Origin: a virus
Lineage: Duplodnaviria > Heunggongvirae > Uroviricota > Caudoviricetes
DNA length: 28,665 nucleotides
Direction: 5' to 3' (one strand)
IMG/VR virus record: IMGVR_UViG_2740892282_000008
In this document: positions 1 through 27,429 of the stretch, one piece after another
Numbering within the stretch: position 1 is the first letter of the stretch
Layout: each line of letters begins with the position of its first letter
The notes under the pieces: model-generated
Database searches by the model: none
Told to the model about the DNA's origin: nothing
What the model saw: only the letters and a program-made list of their open reading frames with translations
Made by a program: the position numbers and the translations under genes

Positions 1-393
1 ATGTTAGATATTGACAGTTTCAAAAGCATCAATGACAAATGGGGGCATCATATGGGTGATCAAGTCATAGTAATGGTTACCAGAATAATAAAAAAATCCA
101 TCAGGAAAGAGGATATATTAGGGCGCTTAGGCGGTGAGGAGTTCGGTATTATCATTAAAGGTAATACTCAAAAGCTCTTGCTATCAATTGCAGAGCGAAT
201 CAGAAAAAACATTGAAGAGCAATGCTCGGAAAAATTATTATCGCATGGACCTGAGAAAATAACTGTCAGTATTGGTTGCTTTACTTCAAAAGAGAATAAC
301 CTCAGTCCATCTGAAATGTTAGTCAATGCCGATAAAGCGTTATATCAAGCCAAAAGAACCGGAAAAAACAAGGTGATAATTCACTCAAAATAA
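1..393 (+). CDS. GGDEF-domain diguanylate cyclase, C-terminal portion (5' end lies outside the window)
   Basis: Frame-1 ORF open from the window edge; GGEEF active-site motif (RLGGEEFGIII) with typical downstream cyclase sequence; stop at 391-393. Confidence 0.8.
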   Translation: MLDIDSFKSINDKWGHHMGDQVIVMVTRIIKKSIRKEDILGRLGGEEFGIIIKGNTQKLLLSIAERIRKNIEEQCSEKLLSHGPEKITVSIGCFTSKENNLSPSEMLVNADKALYQAKRTGKNKVIIHSK

Positions 394-2792: not shown

Positions 2793-3044
2793 TTAGTCCT
2801 GATTTTTATCCACCCTGAGTAGTTCGCGCAGAGCAAAGGCATCCCCTTTTCTGGCAAGCTTAAACAATGCCGCTCGTAACTCGGCTTCACCTTTCGCTCT
2901 GCCCTTACGGATGGCCGCATAAAAATCTGTCATTGCTTCCCGATTTTCTTTCAGTCGGTTCAGATCAACATCCAGAACGTCAGCGATTTGTTGTGCAGTC
3001 ATCCGGCACGCTGCCAGAGACTCGACTTTCGAATACGGAATCAT
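2793..3044 (-). CDS. Hypothetical small HTH-like protein (83 aa)
   Basis: ATG with strong RBS (GGGGGTGA); overlaps the 3' end of the upstream gene in another frame. Confidence 0.5.
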   Translation of the reverse strand: MIPYSKVESLAACRMTAQQIADVLDVDLNRLKENREAMTDFYAAIRKGRAKGEAELRAALFKLARKGDAFALRELLRVDKNQD

Positions 3045-3933
3045 TTGTCACCCCCATTGATATGCAGGGTGTCTTCTTCCTGTATTTTTCGTGAAGGATT
3101 TTTACTGCAGCGTTGTTCCAGGTGACCTGATGGTGAATGCGTTTATGGCTGGCACCCATCAGTGAGATTTTTACGCACGACGGCGCATACATGACGGAGT
3201 AAAAACTTTTAACGTAGGTTCCGGAATCCAGATACAGCTCGGTCATTCCGCCGCTGTTTTTCTGCGTCTGTTTCTGCCCTAACTGGACAGCACCGATCGT
3301 CATAAACAATTCACCACAGCGACCGAGATTCGTGTACGTATTCACATCCTCGTTAATGCGCCCCATGAATGAGAACGGTCGATCAACCGAACAGATAAAG
3401 CTGTTCATTGCCTTGCGTTTCACCCACGAAGCATGGCCGCCATTGTCACCAAGAAAATCCCCGCCCTGCGACATAGCGATGGAAAGAGCAGGTATTGATT
3501 CGTAGTACGCCAGCATTTCAGAAAGGATCGCATCCAGTTTCCTTATCGGAAAATAGGCCTGGTCATAGTTGCGATCCACCCGAAACTGGAACTCGTGATA
3601 ATCATCATCGAGCTGAATGAAGTATTTACACCCGACCAGTTTTGCCAGGTCGAAACAGGCATTACGGGCGTAAAAAATTGAGCGGCGGTCACAGAAATTA
3701 TCGGCTTCGTCAAAACGACTGGCGATATCGGCTTTGGAAAACACCAGCACCTGTTCACCAAATTCAGCCATGTACTGATTCCGTGTCTTATCTTCATCAT
3801 CAACAACGATAAAAATTTTCCCGGTATAGCCAGCACGACGCAACGTCCGGTAAGTCAGAACTTTGTCCGGTCGCCCGTGAGTCAGAATAAAGGCGCAAAA
3901 ATCATCACGCATATTCCTCCTCCTCACCACCAT
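2980..3933 (-). CDS. Uncharacterised protein, partner of the ParB-like gene (310-317 aa)
   Basis: Long ORF translationally coupled to the upstream ParB-like gene. The likely true start is the ATG at 3912, preceded by AGGAGGAGG. Contains a possible PD...(D/E)xK-like motif (GRPD ... IFIVVDDEDK); no methyltransferase DPPY/NPPY motif and no PP-loop. Confidence 0.7.
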   Translation of the reverse strand: MVVRRRNMRDDFCAFILTHGRPDKVLTYRTLRRAGYTGKIFIVVDDEDKTRNQYMAEFGEQVLVFSKADIASRFDEADNFCDRRSIFYARNACFDLAKLVGCKYFIQLDDDYHEFQFRVDRNYDQAYFPIRKLDAILSEMLAYYESIPALSIAMSQGGDFLGDNGGHASWVKRKAMNSFICSVDRPFSFMGRINEDVNTYTNLGRCGELFMTIGAVQLGQKQTQKNSGGMTELYLDSGTYVKSFYSVMYAPSCVKISLMGASHKRIHHQVTWNNAAVKILHEKYRKKTPCISMGVTNDSVFESRVSGSVPDDCTTNR

Positions 3934-4696
3934 GCATGATCTCCACCATGCGCTGCGTCATCCGGACAAATCCATTTTCAATAGCCTGCTGATAATCAAT
4001 GATCACCAGCGCCGACTCCTCGAAAAAACACTGAATTTCAGAGGGGGCGTGAGCGTAATAGTCCGCAATTCTGCTGAAATTAAACACCGTGTGACGTTCT
4101 GCCGCACACAGGAGGAATTTCTCAATATCAGGCTCAAGGGACGCCGAACGTATCCGGCTGATCAGCTCCTGAGTTTTCGTATCGTCGTACAGTTCACTGA
4201 TATCCGGTTTACCGCCCGACGGCTCATAAACAGGCGTATCAATTTTCGTCGTATACGGCTCCTCCTCATTTCCTGTACCGGGCAAAACATCCGTCAACAG
4301 TTCATCAATTTCTGTCGGGATGAAGCCTGTCAGGGAGACATCAAAATCAGCATTGATTAGGTCCGACAGCTCCATCCGCAACAGATCTTCATCCCAGCCA
4401 GCATTCATCGGCAGGCGATTATCTGCCAGGCGGTACGCCTTTTTCTGCTCATCCGTCAGGCCAGACAGAACAATGACCGGAACAGAATCCATTTTGAGCA
4501 TTTCAGCCGCCATAACACGACCGTGACCCGCAATAATTTCGCCCTTTTCGTCAATCAGCACCGGATTAGTCCAGCCGAATTGCTTAATACTTTCTACCAG
4601 TTGTGCCACCTGCTCAGGGCTGTGCGTCCTGGCGTTGTGCGCATACGGTGACAATTCTTGTAATGGGCGATAGACTATCTTTAATTTCTCGCTCAT
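3905..4696 (-). CDS. ParB-like nuclease domain (ParB/Srx fold) protein, 263 aa
   Basis: N-terminal ParB-box-like motifs (VYRPLQELSPYAHNARTH ... IIAGHGRVMAA); 3' end overlaps the start of the next gene. Confidence 0.8.
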   Translation of the reverse strand: MSEKLKIVYRPLQELSPYAHNARTHSPEQVAQLVESIKQFGWTNPVLIDEKGEIIAGHGRVMAAEMLKMDSVPVIVLSGLTDEQKKAYRLADNRLPMNAGWDEDLLRMELSDLINADFDVSLTGFIPTEIDELLTDVLPGTGNEEEPYTTKIDTPVYEPSGGKPDISELYDDTKTQELISRIRSASLEPDIEKFLLCAAERHTVFNFSRIADYYAHAPSEIQCFFEESALVIIDYQQAIENGFVRMTQRMVEIMHGGEEEEYA

Positions 4697-4833
4697 ACAG
4701 CCTTGCTTTATGAATAAAACGCACCCCAGCAGCCAGTGCTACTGGGGACGGAGGGGTTGCTGGTAAAGTTAGGTATTGGATCAATGAGTGAGTCAACATA
4801 ATATTAAACTCACAATTATAAATCAGCCATATA

Positions 4834-6291
4834 TTAGGAGCGCCAAAAAAAACCTGAAAACAATATAATAACAGGATAAATTTCAAGGCGACCAAGAATC
4901 ATAGCTATGCACATTAAACATTTTGCAATGTCATTAAGCACTCCGAATGACGATGCAGTAGCCCCAAAACCTAATCCCATATTATTAATACATGCAGCCA
5001 CTGTTGCAAATGATGTAAGAAAATCATATCCCATACCATTTAACACCAGTATAAAAAACACCGTGAAGAGAGTATAAAGAAAAAAGAAACTCCATACAGA
5101 CCTCATTACACGATCTGTAACTATCTTCCCTCCTACATTTACACTCAACAACGCTCTGGGATGAGAAAGCTGATTTATCTCGTGTTTGCTTTGTTTGAAA
5201 AGTATAAGAAATCGAAGTGACTTAATTCCACCACAAGTTGAACCTATACATCCCCCAAAGAAACTTGACAACAGCAAAAACACTATCGTGTGCGTGGGCC
5301 AACTTGCATAATCCTGCGTAGCTAAACCATTATCAGTGAGCATGGAGCTGGCAAGAAAAAACGAATGAATAAAACTTCCATGCAAGTCATACATACCTAT
5401 ATGCCAGACCTGGAAAGAGGTAACAATGATCACCCCTAAGGCTATTAACAGAAAGAAACGAAGTTCAATATCTCTGATTAAAGGTTTTATCGTTTTCCTG
5501 CTAATAACAATATACCAAAGAGTGAAGTTGAAAGCCGATAGCAGGGAAAAAGAACCAGCCACCAGCTCAACCAAATAGTTATTAAAATATCCGATACTCT
5601 CGCTATGAGTTGAGAAACCACCAAGCGAAACTGTGGAAATCCCGTGACAAATAGCATCAAACAAAGGCATTCCTGCAAGTCTATAACAGACAATACAAGC
5701 AATACCTAATAAAGAATAAGTTATCCACAGTGTCCGTGACGTATCGGCCAGGCGGGGAGTGAGTTTGTCATCCTTAAATGGCCCCGGCATTTCTGACTGA
5801 TAAAGCTTTGCACCACCAATACCCAATAATGGCAATACAGCAACCGCCAGAACAATAACTCCTAAACCACCTATAAAATTTAACTGTGACCGATAGTACA
5901 AATATGCCCGAGGTAATGAACTAACATCATCAATTACAGTTGCTCCTGTTGTTGTTATTCCAGAAACCCCTTCAAACAGAGCATCAATGAACGTTAAATT
6001 AAGTTCTGAGTCAATCCATAAAGGGAATGCACTAATAACAGAAAACAAAATCCAAAACATTACAATTATAATAAACCCATCACGGGTACGTAATTGAATG
6101 CCAGATTTCTTAGTTGTATACCACGCTCCGCCACCAATGCAAAAAAATATAACGAAAGTTATAAAGAAAACGAACAGGCTTTTTTCTTTATAAAACAATG
6201 CTACAACCATTGGTGGCAACATTGAAAGACTATAGAGCCAAACCAGGAACCCACACATATGAGTAACAACTCTTACATGAGATGTATTCAT
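4834..6291 (-). CDS. trkG: Trk-system potassium uptake protein TrkG (485 aa)
   Basis: Polytopic membrane protein whose sequence from MNTSHVRVVTHMCGFLVWLYSLS matches my recollection of Rac TrkG; conspicuously AT-rich relative to its neighbours. Confidence 0.9.
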   Translation of the reverse strand: MNTSHVRVVTHMCGFLVWLYSLSMLPPMVVALFYKEKSLFVFFITFVIFFCIGGGAWYTTKKSGIQLRTRDGFIIIVMFWILFSVISAFPLWIDSELNLTFIDALFEGVSGITTTGATVIDDVSSLPRAYLYYRSQLNFIGGLGVIVLAVAVLPLLGIGGAKLYQSEMPGPFKDDKLTPRLADTSRTLWITYSLLGIACIVCYRLAGMPLFDAICHGISTVSLGGFSTHSESIGYFNNYLVELVAGSFSLLSAFNFTLWYIVISRKTIKPLIRDIELRFFLLIALGVIIVTSFQVWHIGMYDLHGSFIHSFFLASSMLTDNGLATQDYASWPTHTIVFLLLSSFFGGCIGSTCGGIKSLRFLILFKQSKHEINQLSHPRALLSVNVGGKIVTDRVMRSVWSFFFLYTLFTVFFILVLNGMGYDFLTSFATVAACINNMGLGFGATASSFGVLNDIAKCLMCIAMILGRLEIYPVIILFSGFFWRS

Positions 6292-6428
6292 ATCTAAATA
6301 TTCTTTCAATTATAACCACCTTGCTGCAATATTATGATTATACTGTATAAAATTTAACTCCTCTTAGATCTTACTTCACTGTTCCTTATGAAACAATCAT
6401 CAAAATGAATCATATTGTAGTTAAGATT

Positions 6429-6893
6429 TTACTTTAAACACTGCTCGGTTATGTATTGCTGAGCACCTTCAAGTTGGGCCTGCATCATTACCAGTCGTTC
6501 CCGGAGGGTGAAATAATCCCGTTCAGCGGTGTCTGCCAGTCGGGGGGAGGCTGCATTATCCACGCCGGAGGCGGTGGTGGCTTCACGCACTGACTGACAG
6601 ACTGCTTTGATGTGCAACCGACGACGACCAGCGGCAACATCATCACGCAGAACATCATTTTCAGCTTTCGCATCAGCTAACTCCTTCGTGTATTTTGCAT
6701 CGAGCGCAGCAACATCACGCTGACGCATCTGCATGTCAGTAATTGCCGCGTTCGCCAGCTTCAGTTCTCTGGCATTTTTGTCGCGCTGTTCTTTGTAGGC
6801 GATGGCGTTATCACGGTAATGATTAACACCCCATGACAGGCAGACGACGATGCAGATAACCAGAGCGGAGATAATCGCGGTTACTCTGTTCAT
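6429..6893 (-). CDS. Rz: Spanin inner-membrane subunit Rz (i-spanin)
   Basis: N-terminal transmembrane segment plus coiled-coil periplasmic domain; ATG overlaps the R stop (ATGA); contains the embedded Rz1 frame. Confidence 0.85.
6488..6673 (-). CDS. Rz1: Spanin outer-membrane lipoprotein Rz1 (o-spanin), embedded in the +1 frame of Rz
   Basis: 61-aa ORF with lipoprotein signal and lipobox (LPLVVVGC), proline-rich mature part ([15 protein letters not shown]), strong AAGGAG RBS, entirely inside Rz. Confidence 0.8.
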
Positions 6894-7387
6894 TGCTGAC
6901 CCCACAAACAGATTTCACGCTCAATCTCACGACGAGTCATGAGACCTTTCCATTGCTTACCGCCAGCATATGTCCAGCGACGTAGCTGATCACATGCGCC
7001 TTTGATATCGCCCTGGTTTATTTTGCGAAGAAGCGTCGATGTTCTGAAATTGCCAGCACCCACGTTGTAAACGAATGAGTAAAGAGCGCCGCGCGTTGTT
7101 TCCGGTATATCGACTTTGATGTACGGGTTAATTTGTCTGGCGACCGTGGCAAGGTCTTTATTCAGGAGGGCTTTGCATTCTGCTTTGGTATACGTTTTAC
7201 CGAGCATGATGTCTTTTCCTGTATGCCCGTGACATACAGTCCATACACCAACAATATCTTTGTATGGTATGTAGCTGACACCTTCCAGACCATCGTTACC
7301 ACTTGGGCCAGTGATTAACACTGATGCTATAGCAATTGCTCCGCCACCAATAGCAGCAGCAACGACTTTTCGTAATGATGGAGGCAT
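6890..7387 (-). CDS. R: SAR endolysin (phage-21-type lysozyme R)
   Basis: 165 aa; N-terminal signal-anchor-release segment ([20 protein letters not shown]) followed by a lysozyme domain; close match to my recollection of phage 21 R; strong RBS. Confidence 0.9.
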
Positions 7388-7602
7388 TATTCACCTCTCG
7401 CAGCCTTGCGCTTATCTTCTTTAATCTTGAAATAAAGGTTTGTCAGGTACGTCAGCAGGCCAAATACCAGACTACCCAGCACACCGATTGCAGCCCACTG
7501 TGACGGAGTTACTCTATCGAGCAACTGTAAAAACCAGTAGCCAGCACTGCCTGCGGAGGTGCCGTAGGCAATGCCTGTTGAAATTTTGTCCATGGATTTC
7601 AT
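7387..7602 (-). CDS. S: Class II holin / pinholin (S21-like) with dual-start motif
   Basis: 71 aa starting [26 protein letters not shown]; two transmembrane segments; dual start Met1/Met4 (holin/antiholin); strong GGAGGTGA RBS; stop overlaps the R start. Confidence 0.85.
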
Positions 7603-7710
7603 AGCCTCACCTCCGTACGGAACGGATGGCATAGTTATTATGTGTAGGCTTTCAGACACATCAATCAGAGCCTTAATTGATATATATGCTGGAGACGATG
7701 CAATATAAAA

Positions 7711-7728
7711 AGCTCGCCGTAGCGAGCT
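7711..7728 (-). terminator. Rho-independent terminator closing the lipoprotein moron (minus strand)
   Basis: Stem agctcgc/gcgagct with loop cgta; on the minus strand it is followed by ttttatatt. Confidence 0.55.
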
Positions 7729-7853: not shown

Positions 7854-8249
7854 CTAACCTCGCATGTCAAAGCCAGATTTCTGAAAATCTCTGTAGACTT
7901 CCGGATTGTTGAAGGCCGGAAATTTGGCTTTATGAGCTGCGGACTTTATCGCTTCGCAATAGGCTTTATCACCGTTACTGGTAGATATTTTTAACGCCGT
8001 GCCATCCTGAGAGAATTCCATATGCAACCTGCATTTTTTCCCTTTCCAGTTATGCGGCTCATCAAGTTTGGCATTAATTGCAGCTCTGATTCCCCGCGCT
8101 TGCGCCCCCCATTCATCCTGATCATCCCAGCGTCCTGAACTGCAACTACCTGTAGCAGTAGTTTTGTGGCAATCTGAAGGGTGTAAAGGTGTGCATCCCG
8201 CAACAAAACCGACCCAAAAAGTCAACATAACGATTTTCTTTAATCCCAC
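7854..8249 (-). CDS. Lipoprotein with TolA domain-III-like C-terminal domain (paralogue B, 131 aa)
   Basis: GTG start with GAGGAG RBS; signal peptide plus lipobox (FVAGC); C-terminal ~80 aa share the K-C-L-M...G-L...C-EA...PA...EVY-F pattern with the neighbouring paralogue and with the TolA C-terminus. Confidence 0.7.
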   Translation of the reverse strand: MGLKKIVMLTFWVGFVAGCTPLHPSDCHKTTATGSCSSGRWDDQDEWGAQARGIRAAINAKLDEPHNWKGKKCRLHMEFSQDGTALKISTSNGDKAYCEAIKSAAHKAKFPAFNNPEVYRDFQKSGFDMRG

Positions 8250-8399: not shown

Positions 8400-8828
8400 T
8401 CAGGGTTTAAAATCCAGCACCCCATTTTGAAATACTTTATATACTTCCGGCGAAGGGGGGGCAGGTATATCAGCATTCTTTATCGCATTCATCGCTTCAC
8501 GACATAAATCGAGGTCTCCACTTTCTCTTTTAACCTCCAGTAGAAGGCCATTCGGGGCCATATGCATTCTCAGTGTACACTCTTTTCCTGAATACTTACT
8601 CGCATCCCCGAACTGTTTTTCGATGGCGCTCTTGATTTGATGGGCATACAGACGGATATCCTCACTAACATCAGAAGTACGTTCAGATGAACTCACATAC
8701 TGTGTCTCTATTGCTTTATTGGAGTAATATGATGTACGGTCATGATAATTTGTCGATACAGCATCAGTGCACCCGATAATAATCCCACTAATAATCAACG
8801 TAAGAATTGATGCGCTACGAAAACCCAT
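8400..8828 (-). CDS. Lipoprotein with TolA domain-III-like C-terminal domain (paralogue A, 142 aa)
   Basis: Signal peptide plus lipobox (IIIGC); C-terminus YAHQIKSAIEKQFGDASKYSGKECTLRMHMAPNGLLLEVKRESGDLDLCREAMNAIKNADIPAPPSPEVYKVFQNGVLDFKP is strongly similar, from memory, to the C-terminal domain of E. coli TolA. Confidence 0.8.
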   Translation of the reverse strand: MGFRSASILTLIISGIIIGCTDAVSTNYHDRTSYYSNKAIETQYVSSSERTSDVSEDIRLYAHQIKSAIEKQFGDASKYSGKECTLRMHMAPNGLLLEVKRESGDLDLCREAMNAIKNADIPAPPSPEVYKVFQNGVLDFKP

Positions 8829-9762: not shown

Positions 9763-9795
9763 CGTAAAAAAACCGCATTAAGCGGTTTTTTTACG
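9763..9795. terminator. Strong bidirectional rho-independent terminator ~80 nt downstream of the Q-position gene (tR'-like or end of the early operon)
   Basis: Perfect 14-bp inverted repeat cgtaaaaaaaccgc / gcggtttttttacg with 5-nt loop; A/T runs on both sides. Confidence 0.75.
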
Positions 9796-9872
9796 ATGTC
9801 CATGTCTGCAATCCGCCTCGCGATACAGCTTTGCGAAGCATAGCAAAATTGAAGCAGTTTATACGTAAGAAA

Positions 9873-10415
9873 TCAAGCCATTTTCTCAGCAAATGATTCA
9901 CGCATGGGAATATATAGGGCATACTCAGCAACAGCTAACCAATTAGCAATCCGTTTTTCGCATGTGCTAAAACACCACTCTGGGTGTGCATCATTTAGCA
10001 ATTCAGCCATTTTGCGCTTAGTCATCCCCCGCCCTTCATAGCGTTGCCGGAGAATGCAAATCAATCCTGGATGCTCTGCCAGCACCTCACTTATGACTCG
10101 ATCAATACATAACGCCTCTGCATCAGTACAATGCGCCAGCCAGCTCTTTTGCTTGCCGTTGATCATCTCTCGCAAAAACGCTTCCAGCTCAGCTTTCTCT
10201 ATTCCCGCTTTTTTCATTCTGCGCAGGGCTTCATTAATGGCTGTTTTCGTCAGTTTTTTGGATGCCAACAACTGATTGAACATATTCCCTGACCTGCCAC
10301 CGCCAATATACGACCAGCGCCCCCACATACGTAGTTTTCCCTGAATCCAGACACTTTCCAGCGTGGTGAGGCGAAGGTGTTCTCCGCTTTTTCCTGTATT
10401 CGTTGGGTAAATCAT
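9873..10415 (-). CDS. Putative late-gene antiterminator (Q-like), assigned mainly by position
   Basis: 180-aa ORF, last gene of the early-right operon, translationally coupled (ATGA) to the upstream gene, immediately upstream of a strong terminator and the lysis cassette. Sequence identity to a named Q family not confirmed. Confidence 0.45.
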   Translation of the reverse strand: MIYPTNTGKSGEHLRLTTLESVWIQGKLRMWGRWSYIGGGRSGNMFNQLLASKKLTKTAINEALRRMKKAGIEKAELEAFLREMINGKQKSWLAHCTDAEALCIDRVISEVLAEHPGLICILRQRYEGRGMTKRKMAELLNDAHPEWCFSTCEKRIANWLAVAEYALYIPMRESFAEKMA

Positions 10416-11769: not shown

Positions 11770-11925
11770 TTACTCCTCAGGTTCGTAAGCTGTGAAGACA
11801 GCGACCTCCGTCTGACCGGTTCGGATTCGCACCTCGCAGAGGTCTTTCCTCGTTACCAGTGCCGTCACTATGACGGTTAAACAGATGACAATCAGTGCGA
11901 CTAACATCGCCTTTTGCTGCTTCAT
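11770..11925 (-). CDS. hok: Hok-family type I toxin (51 aa); in-frame mok-like extension to 11982
   Basis: MKQQKAMLVALIVICLTVIVTALVTRKDLCEVRIRTGQTEVAVFTAYEPEE is near-identical to my recollection of HokD; AAGGAG RBS; upstream in-frame ATG at 11982 gives a 70-aa mok-like ORF; 9-bp hairpin ggcgaggga/tccctcgcc just 3' of the stop. Confidence 0.85.
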   Translation of the reverse strand: MKQQKAMLVALIVICLTVIVTALVTRKDLCEVRIRTGQTEVAVFTAYEPEE

Positions 11926-12136
11926 AGCCTGCTTCTCCTTGCCTTCCGGCGCGTAAGAGGCTAACCTACATGTGCAAAGCATGAAATTGGCCTCAGATTA
12001 ATGTTAAGCGTCTTGCCGGACGCGTAATGTTATCTGGGGCTTTTCTCTATCTGCCTTTGGTGTTCATGCCTGAGGCAGATAGCCTCAAGCACCCGCAGCA
12101 ATTCTACTTAACTCCCGTCACCTCGCCAATATAAAA

Positions 12137-12645: not shown

Positions 12646-13845
12646 ATGCCATTTGTTATTTATGTGTTTACTATCAGTGCCTTTGCGCTCGGACTCGCGG
12701 AATTTGTCCCCATTGGGCTGACAGACGTTATGGCTCAGGGGTTGTGTGTGGGTGTGGAGCAGACCGGGGCAGCGGTTACAACCTATGCACTGGGGGCAAC
12801 GTTCGCGGCACCCGTACTGTCTGCGCTGACAGCAAGCTGGAGCCGGAAAAATGTAATGCTTACAACTGCCGTTGTGTTTACTGCCGGTAGTCTGGCGGCC
12901 GCGTTTGCAGCCACATTACCTCAGCTCCTGTTAGCGCGGTTCATTGCTGGTCTGGGACACGGCCTGTTTCTGGCTGCGGCATCCAGTACCGCAGCTCGTC
13001 TTGCTGGACCGGGTAAAGCAGGCAGAGCGGTGGCTGTGGTATTTGGTGGCTTTACTCTGGCGATGGCAATCGGCGTACCGCTGAGTACATGGTTGGGGGG
13101 GGGGGTCTCATGGCGTCCAGTTCTCGGCGCTATTGCCGCTTTTGGCGCGTTCGGATTCCTTGGACTGTTGTTCGGTATGAAAGATCCCGTACGCAGCGTG
13201 CCCGGTGAACATAGTGACTCAGCAATGCAGAATATCGGCATGCTGTTTAACCGTAAGTTGCTGGCCGGCGCGCTGGTTACGGTGCTGGCGTATGCAGGCT
13301 CGTTTACGGATTACACCTTTATCGCACCTATTCTGACGCAGGTGACAGGGGTTACCGGAGCAACGGTGAGTCTGTTTATGCTGGTTTACGGTATTACAGC
13401 TGCGGTAGGTAATATTCTTGGTGGGAAACTTACCGACAGCATGGGGGTTAATCGTGCCAATATACTCATCATTAGCGGCATTGTTGTTGTCGTGCTTGGT
13501 ATGTGGCTGCTGTCATCCTCACCGGTGAGCATGGGCATTCTGGTTGCGCTGCTGGGTATGGTGACATTTGCCGCAGTGCCGGCACTGCAGGCCCGTCTGA
13601 TTGGTGTCGCTGAGCAACATGCTCCTCATGCGCATGGTGTTGCTGCCGGCCTGAATATTGCGGGCTTCAACTCAGGTATAGCGCTGGGATCAGTACTGGG
13701 CAGCATTACTATAAGCCACGCCGGTATCGTGTATACCGGTATCAGCGGTGCGATTGTTTCTCTGCTCGGCCTGCTGTTGCTGCTTGCACAAATCCGTCGC
13801 AGCCACAGTCGTAAATTTCAACAGGTTAAAATCGTAGGCCAGTAA
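12646..13845 (+). CDS. MFS transporter (399 aa)
   Basis: About 12 predicted transmembrane helices, Gly/Ala-rich major-facilitator-like sequence; AGGAG RBS; GC-rich relative to phage DNA; contains an 11-G tract. Confidence 0.85.
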   Translation: MPFVIYVFTISAFALGLAEFVPIGLTDVMAQGLCVGVEQTGAAVTTYALGATFAAPVLSALTASWSRKNVMLTTAVVFTAGSLAAAFAATLPQLLLARFIAGLGHGLFLAAASSTAARLAGPGKAGRAVAVVFGGFTLAMAIGVPLSTWLGGGVSWRPVLGAIAAFGAFGFLGLLFGMKDPVRSVPGEHSDSAMQNIGMLFNRKLLAGALVTVLAYAGSFTDYTFIAPILTQVTGVTGATVSLFMLVYGITAAVGNILGGKLTDSMGVNRANILIISGIVVVVLGMWLLSSSPVSMGILVALLGMVTFAAVPALQARLIGVAEQHAPHAHGVAAGLNIAGFNSGIALGSVLGSITISHAGIVYTGISGAIVSLLGLLLLLAQIRRSHSRKFQQVKIVGQ

Positions 13846-13856
13846 AGGGAGGTTAT

Positions 13857-14549
13857 ATGCTTACCCGTGAAAATATGCTTAATGGCACATTTGTCAGGGT
13901 GCATGAAGCGCTGCTCCCGGCGAATATGCTCTGGGACGCTGAAAAAATACGCGCATCAATGAACTCTACTCTGGAGGAGCGCCCGACGGGTGCTCCTGTC
14001 TGGATATTTGCCTACGGGTCATTGATGTGGAATCCCGTGCTGGCGATTGAAGAAATGCAACGGGCCCGTCTGAAAGGATGGCAGCGCAGTTTCTGCATTC
14101 GTTTGATATCCGGACGAGCGACTCCTGATGTCCCCGGCAGGATGTTATCGCTCGACGAAGGTGGAATTACCGAAGGTATTGCGTTCAGACTGCCGGAATC
14201 GACTCTTATTAATGAGCTGGAAATTGTCTGGACGCGCGAGATGATAACCGGTCTTTACCGTCCGGTCTGGGCAGACGTTTCGCTAGGAAACGGTGAGGAA
14301 ATTCAGGCGCTGGCTTTCGTATCAGACAGACTGCATCCGCATTATGAACAGGACAATCTTACAGCGACCGTAGCGTTGAGCATCGCATCTGCCCGTGGAG
14401 ACATTGGCACGAATGCAGATTATGTATGGAAACTGCAGGCCACTCTGGGTGCGTTGGGAATACGGGATGATTACGTGAGTGAACTGGCCCTTGCTCTGCA
14501 TGAGGCTCCCTGTAACGATAAACTTCATCAGCGAGGCGCTTCACTATGA
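13857..14549 (+). CDS. ChaC-family gamma-glutamylcyclotransferase-like protein (230 aa)
   Basis: VWIFAYGSLMWNP and GRMLSLDEGG motifs resemble E. coli ChaC; GGGAGG RBS. Confidence 0.75.
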   Translation: MLTRENMLNGTFVRVHEALLPANMLWDAEKIRASMNSTLEERPTGAPVWIFAYGSLMWNPVLAIEEMQRARLKGWQRSFCIRLISGRATPDVPGRMLSLDEGGITEGIAFRLPESTLINELEIVWTREMITGLYRPVWADVSLGNGEEIQALAFVSDRLHPHYEQDNLTATVALSIASARGDIGTNADYVWKLQATLGALGIRDDYVSELALALHEAPCNDKLHQRGASL

Positions 14550-15427
14550 GCCATCTGAGCCATCTGCGAACGTTTCTTGAGGCCTATCGCTCTGGCTCCT
14601 TTTCAAAGGCGGCAGAACTACTGGGCATCACTCAGCCCGCGGCGTCACAGCATATCCAGTCTCTTGAGACTCTGGTTGGTAAGCGTCTGTTTATCAGGCA
14701 GGCCAGAGGCGTGACGGCAACCGAAGCTGCGGATGAGCTTGCCCGCTCAGTTTCACCCTTCATTGATGGTCTGGAAGAAAAGCTGTCCTCTTTCCGGTCA
14801 GGCTCTGTACGCGGGGGAACAATTAATCTGGCAGGACCGCCAGATTTTATTCATTCCCGGCTTGGGACAGTAATGGCTCCACTAATGAAGGAGGGGTATC
14901 GCCTACGCTTTCATACCGGCAATAAGCAACGTATTTATTCCCTTTTGCATGACGGGAGCGCCGATCTCGCTGTTACCGCATCTATGCCTGATGACCGTCT
15001 GTACGGCTATGCACATCTACTGACTGAACGCATGCTCCTTGTTCATGCTCCCGCCATGTCAGAGATCATCGGATCAGAACCTGGTGCTGAAACGCTTGCC
15101 TCATTACCGCTGATTGCTTATGACGAAGAGTTGCCACTGATTAGAGCGCTCTGGGCCTCCATGTTTCAGAGAGCCCCTGAGATGCAGGCTACATTCACCA
15201 TTCCGGATTTACGTATTATCCGCGACTTGGTCTGTGACGGCCACGGGTGGACAGTGCTGCCGGATTATCACTGTGACAATGACCTGAAAAGTGGTCGCCT
15301 GATTTCAGTGACACCTGCAGACCTCGCTCCGACTAATCATCTTTATCTGGTCTGGAACAAAAGGACGGCTAATAACAGCCGAACCGCCTATGTTCGGGAT
15401 TACATTCTTAAAACGTTTCCGCGTTGA
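14546..15427 (+). CDS. LysR-type transcriptional regulator (293 aa)
   Basis: N-terminal LysR HTH (LRTFLEAYRSGSFSKAAELLGITQPAASQHIQSLE) and C-terminal substrate-binding-like domain; ATGA overlap with the ChaC-like gene. Confidence 0.85.
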   Translation: MSHLSHLRTFLEAYRSGSFSKAAELLGITQPAASQHIQSLETLVGKRLFIRQARGVTATEAADELARSVSPFIDGLEEKLSSFRSGSVRGGTINLAGPPDFIHSRLGTVMAPLMKEGYRLRFHTGNKQRIYSLLHDGSADLAVTASMPDDRLYGYAHLLTERMLLVHAPAMSEIIGSEPGAETLASLPLIAYDEELPLIRALWASMFQRAPEMQATFTIPDLRIIRDLVCDGHGWTVLPDYHCDNDLKSGRLISVTPADLAPTNHLYLVWNKRTANNSRTAYVRDYILKTFPR

Positions 15428-15471
15428 TGTTTGAAACGGATGATTGGCGATGCGTATCATAAGTTACGTAT

Positions 15472-15495
15472 GTCCGCTTCTGGCACAAAGCAGAC
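15472..15495. repeat. Dyad element copy A: GTCCGCT-tctggcacaa-AGCAGAC
   Basis: 7-bp arms (one mismatch) with 10-bp spacer, between convergent LysR and membrane-protein genes; 20 of 24 positions identical to copy B. Confidence 0.6.
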
Positions 15496-15557
15496 GCCCA
15501 CTCTCACGCGAATGCTTTGCCCTTGACTTGCCAACAACCGTATCGCTTGCTCCGCAA

Positions 15558-16835
15558 CTATGGTTTTTTATTAGAATCTTCGCCACTAAATAAATTATAA
15601 TAAATTGATTTTATTAGATATCTGTCAGAATCTATATGGTCAGCACGAGTAGCATGCTCTAATGTTTCAAATGCTAGGGTTTGTGCGGCTTCAGCAAAAA
15701 TTCCAGGCCAACCCTTACTCAGCATCGACAGTCCTTTAAGTACCCTTATCTGAATTTCCCTCATACTGGCACCATCGCGCGCAACAGGTGAGAAAAAGTC
15801 TTCAAGTAGATCGTTATTCTGAAGTGGTGCAACATGTACAGAAGGATATTTCACTTCTATTTCATCAGATTTATTCTGCGCGTAAGCGGAAAGTATACGT
15901 ACACCTCTGCCAATGACATCAATGGCGGTTCCAGGATCGTTCACTGCGGGGGAAAGGGCTCGGCAGGCTATTTCGGCCATGACGCTAAGACAAAATCGGG
16001 GGTCCTGAGCAAATGAACGTACATCCGAGACAATAATCGTCTCAAGTAAATCGGTGCTGATTGATGACTCCTGGCCCTGACTCAGGTACAAAACTGGCGT
16101 GGACGGATGTATGAAACTGCCCGGCTGCGCCACGAGGTATACATGACGGGGATCATTGGTCAGCAGCTTGCTGAGTTTCACCATATCAACATATTCAACA
16201 TAGCCAATCTTTTTCGGATAAACTGCAACCGTTCCTTTCGGCTGTTCATTGTTCTCAAGCCATGGATATCCGCCGAGACAGGGATTTCTTGCTCTCGCAA
16301 TAAATGTTTCGATGGCCGCCTGTTCTACTTTTGCCGTTGTCTCACCAACCCTCCCCAGAGAGGTCAAATGCTGTATCCAGCGAAGCAATGTGATGAGGAT
16401 TAAGGCAATGACAACCAGTGTTACAATGAATAAAATGACTCTCCCCCTTTCTCCATAAGCTCCCATATTGAGGGCAATAATCCCTACCAGACTGAAGAGA
16501 AAAGAACCGATGAAGGTGGCCAGTACATTTTGTGTGGTGACGTCTTCAACAACTAAACGAGTAGCTCTGGGAGTCACATTAGTAGTGGCTGAACCGTAGG
16601 CTGTGACCATGATGCTCAGCGAAAATGTGGTCACTGCCAGCATACTCGATGCCAGTATGTTCAGAATGTTATCGACTGCTTCCGCACCAACCTTCACGGA
16701 AACCGACTCAGGTATCATTGATTTAAAAAGAATTGATAAAAGGGCCGTTATTATTGCGACAATTGCGAATAACGTTGCCCTGAACCATAGTTTTTTAAAT
16801 GTCTGCTTCAGCATCCATTTCCAGCGTGAAATCAT
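15558..16835 (-). CDS. Membrane protein of unknown function (about 425 aa; resembles DUF2254-type predicted membrane proteins)
   Basis: Several N-terminal transmembrane helices and a large soluble C-terminal domain; start chosen at the second ATG (16835), which has a GAGGGA RBS; the maximal ORF extends to 16850. Family assignment is from memory and tentative. Confidence 0.55.
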   Translation of the reverse strand: MISRWKWMLKQTFKKLWFRATLFAIVAIITALLSILFKSMIPESVSVKVGAEAVDNILNILASSMLAVTTFSLSIMVTAYGSATTNVTPRATRLVVEDVTTQNVLATFIGSFLFSLVGIIALNMGAYGERGRVILFIVTLVVIALILITLLRWIQHLTSLGRVGETTAKVEQAAIETFIARARNPCLGGYPWLENNEQPKGTVAVYPKKIGYVEYVDMVKLSKLLTNDPRHVYLVAQPGSFIHPSTPVLYLSQGQESSISTDLLETIIVSDVRSFAQDPRFCLSVMAEIACRALSPAVNDPGTAIDVIGRGVRILSAYAQNKSDEIEVKYPSVHVAPLQNNDLLEDFFSPVARDGASMREIQIRVLKGLSMLSKGWPGIFAEAAQTLAFETLEHATRADHIDSDRYLIKSIYYNLFSGEDSNKKP

Positions 16836-16870
16836 TCTGCATTCCCTCATATTGCAGCCGGGATAAATAA

Positions 16871-16891
16871 ATGCCGCCTCTGTGGCGGCAT
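16871..16891 (-). terminator. Hairpin between the BCCT transporter and the membrane-protein gene; possible intrinsic terminator or attenuator
   Basis: 8-bp stem atgccgcc/ggcggcat with loop tctgt; on the minus strand it is followed by ttatttatcc. Confidence 0.4.
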
Positions 16892-16898
16892 GTTGCTG

Positions 16899-18902
16899 TT
16901 AACGAACCAGATGCAGGAAGTGCAGGTGTTTTTCGTACTGGTCCAGTATGTCATTAATCAGCTGTTCCTGATTCCAGCCCATTACATCATAATTTTGGCC
17001 GCCCTCTTTGAGATAGACTTCAGCGCGATAATATCGATGTTGTTCACTCTGCTGCTCATCATTATCCAGCGCAGCGAGCGCGAAGGTCGGTGAGTTATAC
17101 CCGCGAAGCCTCACTTCATATATATAATTCAGCTCGTTGCCCAAATCGACTTCAAGGCGAATACGATCCTCGGCGGCGTCACTGATGTGGCTTATCGTTC
17201 CCTGCTTGTTAAGTTCCTCCTGAACCAGCGTCATGGCGGGTTGGATAATGTCGTCCATAAAACGTTTCACAAGAGAGCGCTTCGGCAAATACGCGATATT
17301 GCGTAACCTTCTCTGCCAGGGAATTGGGTTACGTGCAGCCGTAGGAGCAATAGTCGCCATGCTAAGGCTTTCACGCTTGGTCAAATCCCGACGCAGGGCT
17401 TTTAACAGTCCGTATATGGATATTAATAAGATAACTGAGAAGGGCAATGCACTCGCTATCGTTACGGTTTGCAACGCACTCAGCCCCCCTGCGATCAGCA
17501 GGGCAATAGCAACAACGCCCATGAGCGATGCCCAGAAAATTCGCTGCCAGACGGGCGTGTTTGCCACCCCACCTGATGCCAGAGTATCCACAACCATTGC
17601 CCCCGAATCAGCAGACGTTACAAAGAAGACGATGACCATCGCCATTGCAATGAATGACAGCACGGAAGAGAACGGGAAATGCTCCAGGAAATTAAACAGG
17701 GCAAGCGCAACATCCTGCTGAACGGTATTGGCGAGGTCAGTGGCGCCCTGGTTCATGATGAGATAGATGGCGCTGTTTCCAAACACCGTCATCCACATGA
17801 GCGTAAAGCCGGCGGGAACAAACAACACGCCAGTCACGAACTCACGAATTGTCCTGCCGCGGGAAACGCGTGCAATGAACATACCTACAAACGGCGACCA
17901 TGAAAGCCACCATCCCCAGTATAATAATGTCCAGCCCCCCAGCCAGTTGCTCGACTTGGGTTCATACGCGTAAAGGTTGAACGTTTTACTCACCAGTTCC
18001 GACAGATAACCACCCGTATTTTCCACAAATGACTTCAGCAGAAGCACAGTGGGACCCAGGCACAAGACCAGCGCCAGGAGCAACACCGCCAGGCCCAGAT
18101 TAAGCTCAGACAGGATGCGTATTCCCTTGTCCAGGCCGGACACCACCGAAATCGTCGCTAACCCCGTGATGACCACGATCAAAATGACCTGTACCGTTTC
18201 ATTGATGGGCACGCCGAAAAGATGGTTCAAACCGGCATTCACCTGCAATACACCGTAACCCAGCGATGTTGCAACGCCAAAGACAGTGCCTATCACGGCG
18301 AAGATATCAACCGCGTGGCCTATAGGCCCGTAAATGCGATCGCCGATAATGGGATAGAGCGCAGAACGCAGCGTTAAAGGCAGACCGTGACGGTAACTGA
18401 AAAAGGCCAGAATCAGCGCCACGATGGCATAAATTGCCCATGCGTGCAGACCCCAGTGGAAGAACGTCAGGCGCATGGCTTCCTTCGCTGCCGCAACGGT
18501 CTCTGGAGTGCCGACAGGTGGCGAAAGATAATGCATCACAGGTTCGGCAACGCCAAAGAACATCAGGCCGATCCCCATCCCTGCCGAAAAAAGCATCGCG
18601 AACCAGGAGTGGTAGCTGAAATCAGGCTGCGCATGGTCTGGGCCCAGCTTTATATCACCGTAACGTGAGAGTCCAAGGAACGTGACGCTCAGTAAAATCA
18701 GGGCCACAGCAAGTATGTAGAACCAGCTGGCATTCGTGAAGATTTGTTGCTGAAGTAGTTTAAAATTTTTGTCGGCGACATCCGGGAATACGGCGGCAAA
18801 GGCGACAAGAAGGAAAATTAGCAAAGCAGATGTAAAGAATACCGCTTTGTTAATCTGGCTTGTAGACTTCTTTGGGGTTGTATCATTTTCACTCATAATC
18901 AT
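16899..18902 (-). CDS. BCCT-family transporter, BetT-like (667 aa)
   Basis: Collinear similarity to my recollection of E. coli BetT, including LSELN, WTLLYWGWWLSWSPFVGMFIARVSRGRTIREF and the cytoplasmic C-terminal extension ending DILDQYEKHLHFLHL. Confidence 0.9.
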   Translation of the reverse strand: MIMSENDTTPKKSTSQINKAVFFTSALLIFLLVAFAAVFPDVADKNFKLLQQQIFTNASWFYILAVALILLSVTFLGLSRYGDIKLGPDHAQPDFSYHSWFAMLFSAGMGIGLMFFGVAEPVMHYLSPPVGTPETVAAAKEAMRLTFFHWGLHAWAIYAIVALILAFFSYRHGLPLTLRSALYPIIGDRIYGPIGHAVDIFAVIGTVFGVATSLGYGVLQVNAGLNHLFGVPINETVQVILIVVITGLATISVVSGLDKGIRILSELNLGLAVLLLALVLCLGPTVLLLKSFVENTGGYLSELVSKTFNLYAYEPKSSNWLGGWTLLYWGWWLSWSPFVGMFIARVSRGRTIREFVTGVLFVPAGFTLMWMTVFGNSAIYLIMNQGATDLANTVQQDVALALFNFLEHFPFSSVLSFIAMAMVIVFFVTSADSGAMVVDTLASGGVANTPVWQRIFWASLMGVVAIALLIAGGLSALQTVTIASALPFSVILLISIYGLLKALRRDLTKRESLSMATIAPTAARNPIPWQRRLRNIAYLPKRSLVKRFMDDIIQPAMTLVQEELNKQGTISHISDAAEDRIRLEVDLGNELNYIYEVRLRGYNSPTFALAALDNDEQQSEQHRYYRAEVYLKEGGQNYDVMGWNQEQLINDILDQYEKHLHFLHLVR

Positions 18903-20841: not shown

Positions 20842-21267
20842 TCAATGCACAGCCACAATATTTCCTGCAGGGCCACCACGATTCATCTGGTTGAAACCAG
20901 CGATCGCCACTGCGACAAAATCATCAGCGTCTCTCACCAGTCGTTCCCGCGTCTCCACTAGTTCCCGAAAATAGGCTGAGCTATGGCTGCGCATTCGGGC
21001 CACCAGCAGAGGTGGCATTGCTTTTTCGATAGCTGGTAACAACGCCTGAATTTTTTCAACTGCATCAGGGGTGTCTTTCTCTACCCAGCGGAAAATTTTC
21101 TGGGTATTGCGAGCCAGGGCTTCCGGATGGCTGTCGTCATACAGTTCTGGGAACGTCATACCCAGTTCAAAATAAGCCCTGGTTATTTCAGCTGCCGGAA
21201 CTTTTTCACCGTCCGGATGCGCCCAGGCATTCATCGCCATGCGGATGTGTTCATGCTTGATTTTCAT
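20842..21267 (-). CDS. YdaT-like early protein (141 aa)
   Basis: ATG with AGGAG RBS; follows the cro-like gene with a 17-nt overlap, as ydaS-ydaT do in Rac; name assigned by size and position. Confidence 0.55.
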   Translation of the reverse strand: MKIKHEHIRMAMNAWAHPDGEKVPAAEITRAYFELGMTFPELYDDSHPEALARNTQKIFRWVEKDTPDAVEKIQALLPAIEKAMPPLLVARMRSHSSAYFRELVETRERLVRDADDFVAVAIAGFNQMNRGGPAGNIVAVH

Positions 21268-21532
21268 GAATCAAGCTCCTAGAAAGTGGTTGTGTTAACA
21301 TTTTGGTATCTTCCAGCTCGGGCCAAATATTCATCCAATCAAAAGGCCTTAGTTGCTGACGTGTAACTTCACCATTACTGGCTCGCTCAATAAGGACACA
21401 TAACGATGCCCCTAACACTTGACCTTTACTCAATGCCTTTCTTAGATAACCGATGCTGGTACCACACTCGCATGCAAACATACGCTGTTCATCTGACGAA
21501 AGAGAATTGAGAAATATTCTTAATTCTTCCAT
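21251..21532 (-). CDS. Cro-like HTH regulator (YdaS-like, 93 aa)
   Basis: Divergent from racR across the operator region; HTH-like segment (GTSIGYLRKALSKGQ) and IERASNGEVTRQQLRPFDW motif typical of Cro/YdaS-like proteins; strong AAGGAG RBS. Confidence 0.7.
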   Translation of the reverse strand: MEELRIFLNSLSSDEQRMFACECGTSIGYLRKALSKGQVLGASLCVLIERASNGEVTRQQLRPFDWMNIWPELEDTKMLTQPLSRSLIHENQA

Positions 21533-21561: not shown

Positions 21562-21637
21562 TACCCATAGGTAAACAAAAGTCAATACCCACAGGTTGTT
21601 TACCTTGCAGTAATCGCATCTATTATTTACCTATGGA
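21562..21637. promoter_or_regulatory. Immunity operator/promoter region (OR-like) with three related dyad sites
   Basis: tacccataggta (21562-21573), tacccacaggtt (21586-21597) and tacctatgga (21628-21637, overlapping the racR ATG), in the 100-bp gap between divergent racR and cro-like genes. Confidence 0.6.
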
Positions 21638-22052
21638 CAAATATGAATTTAGACGACAGCAACTCATCAAAATTCGTGATGAGAAATGCGATGGTAAAGC
21701 GGTTAACGTGGCCAGAAAGATCGGGCGCGAGCCTTCTTATGTATCAAGAATGTTGTACCCAGAGGGGAAAAAGGGAAAAAAACGGATCGCTGATGATATG
21801 GTGGAGATTATCGAAGAGTCCTTTGGGTTACCCCGGGGATGGATGGATGGTATCGTTTCATCATCAACGAACACAGCCTCCAGTTATGAAACAAGGGTTC
21901 TAACGCCACGACAACGTATTTTTTTAGATCTCTTAGACGAACTGCCAGAAAGTGAAGCGGATAACTTATTAAAAACTCTTGAAGAGAAAAAACAGTATTA
22001 CAATATGATCTACGAAGAAATCCGTAAAAAGAAAGCACAAAACGCATCATAG
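21633..22052 (+). CDS. racR: Prophage repressor (RacR-like)
   Basis: 139-aa ORF with N-terminal HTH (NVARKIGREPSYVSRML), divergent from the cro-like gene and flanked on both sides by operator-like palindromes. The symbol is assigned by position and my recollection of Rac. Confidence 0.65.
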   Translation: MDKYEFRRQQLIKIRDEKCDGKAVNVARKIGREPSYVSRMLYPEGKKGKKRIADDMVEIIEESFGLPRGWMDGIVSSSTNTASSYETRVLTPRQRIFLDLLDELPESEADNLLKTLEEKKQYYNMIYEEIRKKKAQNAS

Positions 22053-22132: not shown

Positions 22133-22306
22133 CCTTCTTTTCATACCAACCCACCCCGCCCCACAGAATGCAGGGCAATACTTCGAGTTACCAGGCAGTG
22201 GTCAGGGGTTAAGTAGCCAGCCCGAGGCGTAAGAACATGACGGCGGGATTCAAATTTTGCAGTGCAGCAGTTAGTTCCGCCACCCGGCGTTAAGGGGAGA
22301 GATAAG

Positions 22307-22441
22307 ATGGTGCATTACGAAGTAGTTCAGTATTTGATGGATTGTTGCGGTATCACTTACAACCAGGCTGTGCAGGCTTTACGCAGCAACGACTGGGATC
22401 TCTGGCAGGCAGAAGTCGCTATACGTAGCAACAAGATGTGA
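22307..22441 (+). CDS. ydaG: Small Rac early-left protein YdaG (44 aa)
   Basis: ATG with AAGGGGAG RBS; MVHYEVVQYLMDCCGITYNQAVQALRSNDWDLWQAEVAIRSNKM; below the ORF-track size cutoff. Confidence 0.6.
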   Translation: MVHYEVVQYLMDCCGITYNQAVQALRSNDWDLWQAEVAIRSNKM

Positions 22442-22451
22442 GATTCGCAAA

Positions 22452-22607
22452 ATGCAAAAAATCGACCTCGGCAACAACGAATCCCTGGTGTGCGGCGTGT
22501 TCCCCAACCAGGATGGAACGTTCACTGCCATGACGTATACCAAAAGCAAAACATTTAAAACCGAAACTGGTGCGCGCCGATGGTTGGAGAAGCACACAGT
22601 AAGCTAA
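22452..22607 (+). CDS. ydaF: Small Rac early-left protein YdaF (51 aa)
   Basis: ATG ORF MQKIDLGNNESLVCGVFPNQDGTFTAMTYTKSKTFKTETGARRWLEKHTVS; its 3' end overlaps the sieB 3' end convergently. Confidence 0.55.
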   Translation: MQKIDLGNNESLVCGVFPNQDGTFTAMTYTKSKTFKTETGARRWLEKHTVS

Positions 22608-23092
22608 CGATTAAAACGTCTACTCCTGCTGTTCCAGAATAACTTCATAAAATGGGAGTATTTTTCGGTGACGAGATAATAAGAACAGTTTGCGCTATCA
22701 CTCTGATGTTGAATGATGCCCTTCCGTTCTAATTTTTTCATAACCGGGTTACGGCAAGGAGAAGTGATAATAAGATTTCCTGTTTTAAGGAAATCTTTAA
22801 ATACAGCGATTTCTTTCTCAGATAAACGAAGCAATACTCGTTGCTCTGGTAGTAATGAATAATGCTTTTGAATATGTGCTCGCAATCTTGAGAAGGAAAT
22901 GGCGACCACGAAAGAAAAGGCAAAAACGATAATCTGAAAGAGCCAAGGTATTTCAGTATAAGCATTGAATGCGACAGTAAACTCTTTCGGTATCAGCCAG
23001 AGAGTGAGACCAAAAATGATAATCGTATACATAAGTCTTTCGAGTGGCTCGTTAGCAAAAAGTTTCAACAATGGAGTAAATACATCCAACAT
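22604..23092 (-). CDS. sieB: Superinfection exclusion protein B (SieB, 162 aa)
   Basis: Internal ATG at 23092 gives the 162-aa membrane protein MLDVFTPLLKLFANEPLERLMYTIIIFGLTLWLIP...; the maximal ORF runs to 23404. Confidence 0.75.
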   Translation of the reverse strand: MLDVFTPLLKLFANEPLERLMYTIIIFGLTLWLIPKEFTVAFNAYTEIPWLFQIIVFAFSFVVAISFSRLRAHIQKHYSLLPEQRVLLRLSEKEIAVFKDFLKTGNLIITSPCRNPVMKKLERKGIIQHQSDSANCSYYLVTEKYSHFMKLFWNSRSRRFNR

Positions 23093-23532
23093 ATCAATAA
23101 CTCTCAACTGTAAGGGTATTGAAATGTTAACACAAGCTCTCGCTGTAGGGGTATAGCCGAGACCACCGAAGCCCGGAGGTGGTGAAATAAAACCGGGCAC
23201 AACACGAAGGCGCATTTCCGATATCCATAAAGAGTCGGTCTTGTCTGTTAAATTTAAATGGTGGAGTGCGCCTCCGGTTGTAAATAACGACATTGCTGTG
23301 TGTAGTCCTGGCGGCATCAGTTTTTTTCTTGAAGTTCGGCTGATGTCCGCCCTTTTTAAAGTGAATTTTGTGATGCGGTGAATGCGGCTAAGCGCACGTG
23401 GCACAGTTAAAAGTCATGTTAGTCCTTATTGGTTTGGGTGGGAAAGCCGACTGTAATTGTTAACTGGTTGCAGTCACCTGGAGGCACCAGGCACCGCATC
23501 AACAAAGTTCATTTGTAAAAATGGAGATAATT

Positions 23533-23754
23533 ATGATTGCACATCACTTCGGAACTGATGAAATACCACGTCAGTGTGTGACTCCTGGCGATTATGTTCT
23601 TCATGAAGGCCGGACATATATTGCCTCGGCAAACAATATTAAAAAGCGAAAACTATATATTCGTAACCTGACCACAAAAACATGCATTACTGACCGCATG
23701 ATTAAAGTCTTCCTCGGTCGTGATGGTTTACCTGTAAAGGCGGAGTCATGGTGA
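23533..23754 (+). CDS. kilR: FtsZ inhibitor Kil (KilR, 73 aa)
   Basis: [46 protein letters not shown]... matches my recollection of Rac KilR; GGAG RBS. Confidence 0.8.
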
Positions 23755-23924: not shown

Positions 23925-23998
23925 TTAATTGACTATTCGAAACTGAATTTATGCCAGAAATGGCAGGTATTCGCTCAACCTTAATTAAGGAGAAAAAC

Positions 23999-24274: not shown

Positions 24275-24375
24275 AAGAAATAGCCTGCGTATGGCGCAGG
24301 CTATGAACAGTGTGTATCCGGCAAGATCATTCACTGAACAAAACGAATTTTAATCTGAGTTGAGGTTAAAAAACA

Positions 24376-27428: not shown

Positions 27429-27429
27429 T

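Follow-up and report, generated by a model that had tools for sequence, protein, structure and literature searches.

Lysis by a pinholin, a signal-arrest-release (SAR) endolysin, and a spanin is textbook knowledge that derives from the work of Young and colleagues. The annotation of phage 21 (OL657228) records an antiholin/holin gene with a dual start, a SAR endolysin, an i-spanin, and an o-spanin, and these features carry experimental PubMed identifiers. A lysis module in the defective prophage DLP12 has been described as functional, transcribed, and conserved, with outer membrane vesicle (OMV) and lysis phenotypes (PMC7918800). Full-sized Rac-like prophages have also been described (PMC5917428), Rac-like prophages are reported to infect other strains (PMC4632033), and the Rac-like phage KingRac yields cell lysis and particles (PMC6731689). 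The stretch analyzed here, referred to as the window, is the whole 28,665 nucleotides of the virus record IMGVR_UViG_2740892282_000008. Its minus strand carries, at 6429-7602, four uninterrupted open reading frames (ORFs) that correspond to S, R, Rz, and Rz1, as seen in the ORF listing and the sequence itself. These very probably form the coding-intact late lysis operon of a Rac-family lambdoid prophage, with a pinholin, a SAR endolysin, and a two-component spanin of the phage 21 and DLP12 type.

The phage 21-type lysis cassette

The S gene (7602..7387, minus strand, as for the other three) encodes 71 residues that begin MKSMDK, with a second in-frame start, Met4, at 7593, and R (7387..6890) encodes a 165-residue SAR endolysin of the GH24 family and T4-lysozyme fold. 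Rz (6893..6429) specifies a 154-residue inner membrane spanin subunit, and Rz1 (6673..6488), in the +1 frame and wholly within Rz, specifies the outer membrane subunit, a lipoprotein of 61 residues. The four products match Pfam families PF04971 (E=2e-35), PF00959 (E=1e-45), PF03245 (E=4e-53), and PF06085 (E=2e-19), respectively, and their scores exceed the curated cut-offs by factors of 2.5 to 7. NCBIfam has no family for S, Rz, Rz1, or the upstream antiterminator candidate Q, and offers R sub-threshold matches only. The observation of the cassette is real and cannot be due to chance.

An earlier first-pass annotation had described four intact lysis genes in a phage 21-type arrangement with a dual-start pinholin, a SAR endolysin, and an embedded Rz1, and each of these elements is found in the cassette. 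The frames are open, the expected Pfam families are matched, and the alignment to phage 21 S, R, and Rz/Rz1 that it had proposed as a check finds the tested key residues kept and the frames uninterrupted. Nucleotide identity to phage 21 is 94% over the cassette, in a match that spans the annotated antiholin/holin, endolysin, and spanin genes of the phage, and protein identities are high. Ribosome-binding sites were likewise found as described, with a Shine-Dalgarno sequence ahead of every start: the two starts of S have GGAGG and GAGG, R has GAGAGG, Rz1 has AAGGAG, and Rz has a weaker GGGG. The claimed overlaps held for the ATGA shared by R and Rz and for Rz1 inside Rz, but not for S and R, which meet in a TAATG with a 1-nucleotide overlap rather than an ATGA. 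Every sequence mark that was tested of a P21-type pinholin, an R21-type SAR endolysin, and an embedded Rz/Rz1 spanin was present.

The S protein scores 120.9 bits against "Bacteriophage P21 holin S" (PF04971, Phage_holin_2_1; cut-off 26), covering 63 of 64 profile positions. Its N terminus, M1-K2-S3-M4, is that of phage 21 S, whose two products are annotated S21-71 and S21-68; by this likeness, S would yield a 71-residue antiholin form from Met1 (7602) and a 68-residue pinholin form from Met4 (7593). Only residues 31-61, containing the second transmembrane domain (TMD2), pass a hydropathy threshold of KD17>1.0, and residues 8-28 (TMD1) fail it. The weak hydrophobicity of TMD1, together with the N-terminal stretch of R, in which basic residues precede a hydrophobic segment that is 52% Gly, Ala, Ser, or Thr, is the signature of SAR-type segments. 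Within TMD2 the zipper residues of G40xxxS44xxxG48 are kept; the role of this motif is taken from PMC9025707 and general background.

Identity between S and its phage 21 counterpart is 90% (64/71 residues), and all seven substitutions recur in S of the phage records 434, PhiR11_1, 2G7b, or 683R6. Because every change is also phage-borne, the S of the window is a mosaic of phage alleles with no private change. At the DNA level, 43 of 213 nucleotides differ, almost all of them synonymous (dN/dS 0.03). The S 5' leader with its Shine-Dalgarno sequences (7603..7650, minus strand) is of the phage 21 type by alignment, and does not align with the leaders of 434 or 683R6. A small hairpin covers the Shine-Dalgarno sequence, but the predicted fold of the leader RNA is not significant (z = -1.57). 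An sdi-like regulatory structure is consequently not claimed, and the resemblance to the phage 21 leader is one of sequence.

The R protein has 163 of 165 residues (99%) identical to phage 21 R. It scores 155.2 bits against Phage_lysozyme (PF00959), and its residues 1-165 match the structures of RrrD (PDB 4ZPU, E=2.5e-111) and R21 (3HDE, E=9.6e-111), from each of which it differs at two positions. The catalytic triad, spaced Glu-8 residues-Asp-5 residues-Thr, is present as E35, D44, and T50. Of the two differences from R21, M98T is shared with 434, 683R6, and RrrD, and A8V, which falls within the SAR domain, is seen in this copy alone of the six compared. Only 6 nucleotides differ between this gene and phage 21 R (dN/dS 0.15). 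The comparisons of S and R with phage 21 point to strong purifying selection within a typical lambdoid mosaic.

The Rz protein scores 179.5 bits against "Rz lysis protein" (PF03245), has an N-terminal transmembrane domain within residues 1-27, and contains Cys99 and Cys152. In lambda Rz, cysteines form intermolecular disulfides. Rz1 scores 69.5 bits against "Lipoprotein Rz1 precursor" (PF06085) and has a VVGC lipobox with Cys20, Thr21 rather than Asp at +2, Cys29, and the proline runs PPPPP and PPP. A single C>T change hits both proteins, as A81V in Rz and as L8F in Rz1, the latter within the signal peptide. Identity to phage 21 is 138/153 (90%) for Rz and 56/60 (93%) for Rz1. Homology of the phage 21/434 type ends at about window position 6504, and both genes close with a Rac-specific allele, which makes up the final ~25 codons in Rz and the final 4-5 in Rz1. 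This Rz C terminus is identical in the K-12 Rac remnant and in 683R6, which also carries trkG, and the Rz1 C terminus (SGNDW) is common to K-12 RzoR. Rz has 99% identity with both the 683R6 protein and the rzpR remnant of K-12 Rac, and Rz1 has 98% identity with RzoR.

A mechanism can be proposed by homology to the phage 21 system, from the OL657228 annotation and its PubMed identifiers, PMC9025707, and the work of Young and colleagues. After derepression, Q would modify RNA polymerase at a late promoter just past its own gene, and the modified transcription complex would pass hairpins at about 9790-9765, 9445-9426, and 7728-7711 into S-R-Rz/Rz1. The S68 pinholin would build up in the inner membrane, held back by the S71 antiholin, until the weakly hydrophobic TMD1 exits the membrane and TMD2 oligomerizes through its G40xxxS44xxxG48 face into small pinholes. 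Collapse of the proton-motive force and membrane potential would then free the SAR domain of R from the membrane, allowing R to refold into an active muramidase (E35/D44/T50) that degrades the cell wall. Rz in the inner membrane and the lipoprotein Rz1 in the outer membrane would finish lysis by disrupting the outer membrane. If expressed, the four genes would in all likelihood lyse cells, and retained lytic capacity, or autolysis, in the strain that carries the window is plausible.

Rac prophage context and related cassettes

The window is assigned to the Rac family of prophages by gene order and nucleotide identity. It is 99.7-99.9% identical to K-12 Rac over 22142-28665 (intR to sieB), 4443-6873 (Rz-trkG-ynaK), and 1173-2187 (ydaY-ynaA), and Rac-family synteny is present in intR, xisR, ralR, recE, kilR, and sieB, as well as in Rz/Rz1, trkG, and ynaK. 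The window ends at the intR stop codon and does not include ttcA; intR abuts ttcA in CFSAN061771 and ECCWS199, genomes with matching DNA. Directly downstream of Rz lies the Rac cargo gene trkG (4834..6309, minus strand; Pfam TrkH, E=5e-145), which is 99.7% identical to the K-12 Rac region.

The first-pass annotation had called the prophage otherwise defective, and comparison with the near-complete Rac-like prophage of CFSAN061771 bears this out, as head and tail genes have been lost. One missing block begins within the small terminase gene and extends to that for the tail tube, with its junction near 2410. A second begins early in the tape-measure gene and reaches as far as the final ~40 codons of the side tail fiber gene, with its junction near 1175. 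With both blocks gone the prophage can make no virions, and cell lysis without phage would be the sole possible outcome.

The statement that the lysis genes of K-12 Rac are degenerate also proved right. Neither S nor R is present there, and all that survives is the rzpR pseudogene and rzoR. Sequence shared with the window breaks off at 6873, 20 nucleotides inside Rz, with ydaW upstream in K-12. A deletion in K-12 joined ydaW to this point and took with it Q, the TolA-like pair, S, R, and the beginning of Rz, all of which the window keeps. The two prophages share family and synteny, 99.7% nucleotide identity from inside Rz through trkG, and identical Rz C termini and Rz1 C-terminal alleles.

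Phage 21 resembles the window in gene order, the MKSMDK dual start, the type of 5' leader, the R/Rz ATGA overlap, and the embedded Rz1. It differs in that the window's S is a divergent DNA allele and its Rz/Rz1 C termini are Rac-specific, as well as in the flanks: phage 21 has bor downstream where the window has trkG, and tRNAs upstream where the window has TolA-like lipoprotein genes. A tRNA scan found none in the window; phage 21 and 683R6 both have tRNAs between Q and S. DLP12 of K-12 (essD, rrrD/ybcS, rzpD, rzoD) likewise presents an intact P21-type cassette within a defective lambdoid prophage, with ~95% nucleotide identity over 94% of the cassette (K-12 W3110). However, DLP12 is a separate prophage located elsewhere on the chromosome; its Q and upstream region differ, and its Rz/Rz1 C termini are P21-type rather than Rac-type. 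The arrangement is also that of phage 683R6 (vB_EcoS-683R6, ON470595), KingRac, and the CFSAN061771 prophage, in which a DUF1133-type Q, S-R-Rz, trkG, and a ParB-like gene follow in the same order; 683R6 is 98.2% identical over the cassette and the start of trkG. In contrast to the window, these retain terminase, portal, capsid, and tail genes.

Cassettes of this configuration are ordinary and already known. Counts were taken over 5426 complete Escherichia coli genomes, with a P21-type cassette scored when at least 80% of the window cassette was covered. The cassette occurs in 3315 of these genomes, trkG in 1542, the cassette linked to trkG in 692, and the whole block of TolA-like genes, cassette, and trkG in 441, many at 100% identity. 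A megablast search of phage genomes with the cassette returned 548 records. PGAP already names the genes essD, rrrD, and "lysis protein." Given this frequency, this annotation, and the published Rac-like phages and functional DLP12 module, the cassette is not new. A literature search combining Rac, trkG, and holin found no paper.

Late control and alternative explanations

Upstream of the cassette lies a full-length candidate for a Q-type antiterminator of 180 residues (9873..10415, minus strand), which matches DUF1133 (PF06576, E=2.5e-107 over positions 1-175 of 176) and, weakly, Phage_antitermQ (PF06530, 26.1 bits, at about the cut-off of 26). Its homologue in 683R6 is annotated "antitermination protein Q." Straight after the Q stop is a putative late promoter region with a first, pR'/tR'-like terminator (9765..9877, minus strand), suggested by conservation with 683R6: ~65 nucleotides (9810-9877) are conserved, and a different hairpin and T run then follow in each sequence. 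This segment may hold a Q-binding late promoter and tR' that serve the DUF1133-type Q, itself apparently uncharacterized. The conserved ~65-nucleotide block and the hairpin are seen, but no exact -35 and -10 hexamers could be assigned after Q.

Of the terminator-like hairpins on the minus strand between Q and S, one lies at 9445-9426 and one was noted by eye at 9790-9765, and a pattern scan found a putative intrinsic terminator ~110 nucleotides upstream of S (7711..7728, minus strand), with a 7-base pair stem of 5 GC pairs and a T run. Expression of the cassette should require antitermination by Q through several terminators. A sigma-70 scan gave matches at background level (13 found versus 9.2 +/- 3.0 expected). 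A weak sigma-70-like match (9/12) at 7664-7637, between the last terminator and S, was considered as a promoter and rejected on that ground.

Several observations weigh against a cassette that is still in working order and expressed. Between Q and S are 2.2 kb that contain two moron genes and three terminator-like hairpins, and a 6.3-kb cargo island, three of whose genes are oppositely oriented, parts the early operon from Q, so that derepression may yield little Q. At the repressor position is an ORF of 139 residues with no Pfam match and no detected LexA-type peptidase domain, which makes SOS inducibility doubtful. Mitomycin C induces even KingRac only weakly (PMC6731689). An insertion sequence (IS) element is found within the cassette-trkG stretch of some sister genomes, so the cassette is not indispensable. 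Finally, R A8V in the SAR domain and the C>T change that gives Rz A81V and Rz1 L8F are private substitutions that may affect function.

It is possible, although doubtful, that the cassette is intact only because the deletions of virion genes are recent, and that it is never effectively transcribed and contributes nothing to host physiology. Such silence would fit the terminator-like hairpin directly upstream of S, the cargo island between the early genes and Q, and the ORF at the repressor position. It would also fit the sister genomes, many of which have the block at 100% identity and yet differ in the deletions and IS insertions that this prophage has independently undergone, a pattern of recent and ongoing decay. 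However, Q and the post-Q region are intact, linkage of the cassette to trkG persists in 692 of the 1542 genomes with trkG, and transcription and phenotypes are reported for the homologous module of DLP12, which is just as defective (PMC7918800). Alternatively, expression at a low level or in a subpopulation might aid the host through peptidoglycan turnover, vesicle or extracellular DNA release, biofilm formation, or release of contents, a form of domestication that seems rather unlikely. The P21-type module of DLP12, which is conserved and transcribed and modulates OMV production (PMC7918800), offers a precedent, as does the finding that deletion of K-12 Rac or DLP12 roughly halves biofilm lysis (PMC4632033), although K-12 Rac has no S or R. 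The sigma-70-like match ahead of S could supply such expression, but it belongs to a background-level class, and IS insertions within the cassette-trkG stretch of sister genomes argue against a benefit. Moreover, the low dN/dS values were measured against free phages and speak of selection in phage lineages rather than after domestication.

In a narrower form of this proposal, which resembles the domestication put forward for DLP12, the host uses the cassette in head-less and tail-less Rac remnants, where Q-controlled lysis of a subpopulation releases vesicles, DNA, or contents; this is quite improbable. Were it true, the cassette, possibly with the two TolA-domain-III lipoprotein genes, would be under purifying selection at the level of the host and not merely undecayed. 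Least probable is that R A8V, Rz A81V/Rz1 L8F, or the mosaic S allele abolishes function despite the open frames. Release of the SAR domain of a SAR endolysin depends on weak hydrophobicity, and A8V makes this domain slightly more hydrophobic; in addition, R A8V, Rz A81V, and Rz1 L8F are absent from the five phage records compared. Nevertheless, each of the three is a conservative change, the signal peptide that contains Rz1 L8F is cleaved, the catalytic residues and cysteines are intact, and the same DNA is found at 100% identity in many genomes.

The Rac prophage of the window, unlike that of K-12, keeps Q, S, R, Rz, and Rz1, and its derepression could kill the cell by lysis without phage. 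This is relevant to strain engineering, to studies of prophage-induced autolysis or vesicles, and to the decay of Rac across E. coli; otherwise its value is mainly one of correct annotation.

Neighboring genes of the prophage

The moron slot between Q and S holds two minus-strand ORFs with lipoprotein signals (7854-8249 and 8400-8828; lipoboxes VAGC and IIGC). Both are TolA C-terminal (domain III) modules (PF06519, E=1e-14 and 2e-23), and the 142-residue TolA-like protein aligns through its last residue to structures of E. coli TolA domain III (1S62, 1TOL, and 2X9A; E ~1e-27). PGAP labels one of the genes a tolA pseudogene, and no paper was found on TolA-domain-III lipoprotein ORFs in the Q-S slot. 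As TolA decoys in the periplasm, these lipoproteins could guard against colicins or filamentous phage.

Farther upstream, a Hok/Gef family toxin ORF (11770-11982, minus strand; PF01848, E=2e-23) precedes DUF1367-YbcO-Q and is called hokD in a sister genome. The cargo island (12646-18902) sits between the early region (DUF977) and hok/Q. It encodes an MFS transporter, a ChaC-like gamma-glutamylcyclotransferase, and a LysR regulator on the plus strand, and a DUF2254 protein and a BCCT transporter on the minus strand. Among complete E. coli genomes, 285 contain a 9.9-kb stretch with this island; in CFSAN061771 its place is taken by a NACHT-domain protein.

The immunity region (21633-22052 on the plus strand; 21251-21532 and 20842-21267 on the minus strand) has no nucleotide match to that of K-12 Rac. 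Its 139-residue ORF, which lacks a Pfam match, faces divergent YdaS-like and YdaT-like genes, and the region represents a different immunity type within the Rac family. Compared with K-12 and CFSAN061771, the window has lost 1.09 kb at ~26310-26317, namely the C-terminal portion of recE together with the N-terminal portion of recT, so this Rac copy probably has an inactive RecET recombination module.

Between trkG and the terminase remnant lies a pair of minus-strand genes. One (2980-3933) encodes a protein with a ParB N-terminal domain, the full-length form of K-12 ynaK, and the other (3905-4696) matches the TET-associated glycosyltransferase family (PF20691, E=8e-35; named "GREB1-related" by PGAP). 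The two may be a DNA-modification pair. At the opposite end of the window from intR, the 3' end of a GGDEF (diguanylate cyclase) gene (1-393, plus strand) converges on the tail fiber assembly gene (467-1051) where K-12 Rac has pinR. This gene end was considered as a chromosomal junction, and the idea was rejected because a diguanylate cyclase gene ("sensor domain-containing diguanylate cyclase") follows tfa in 316 complete genomes.

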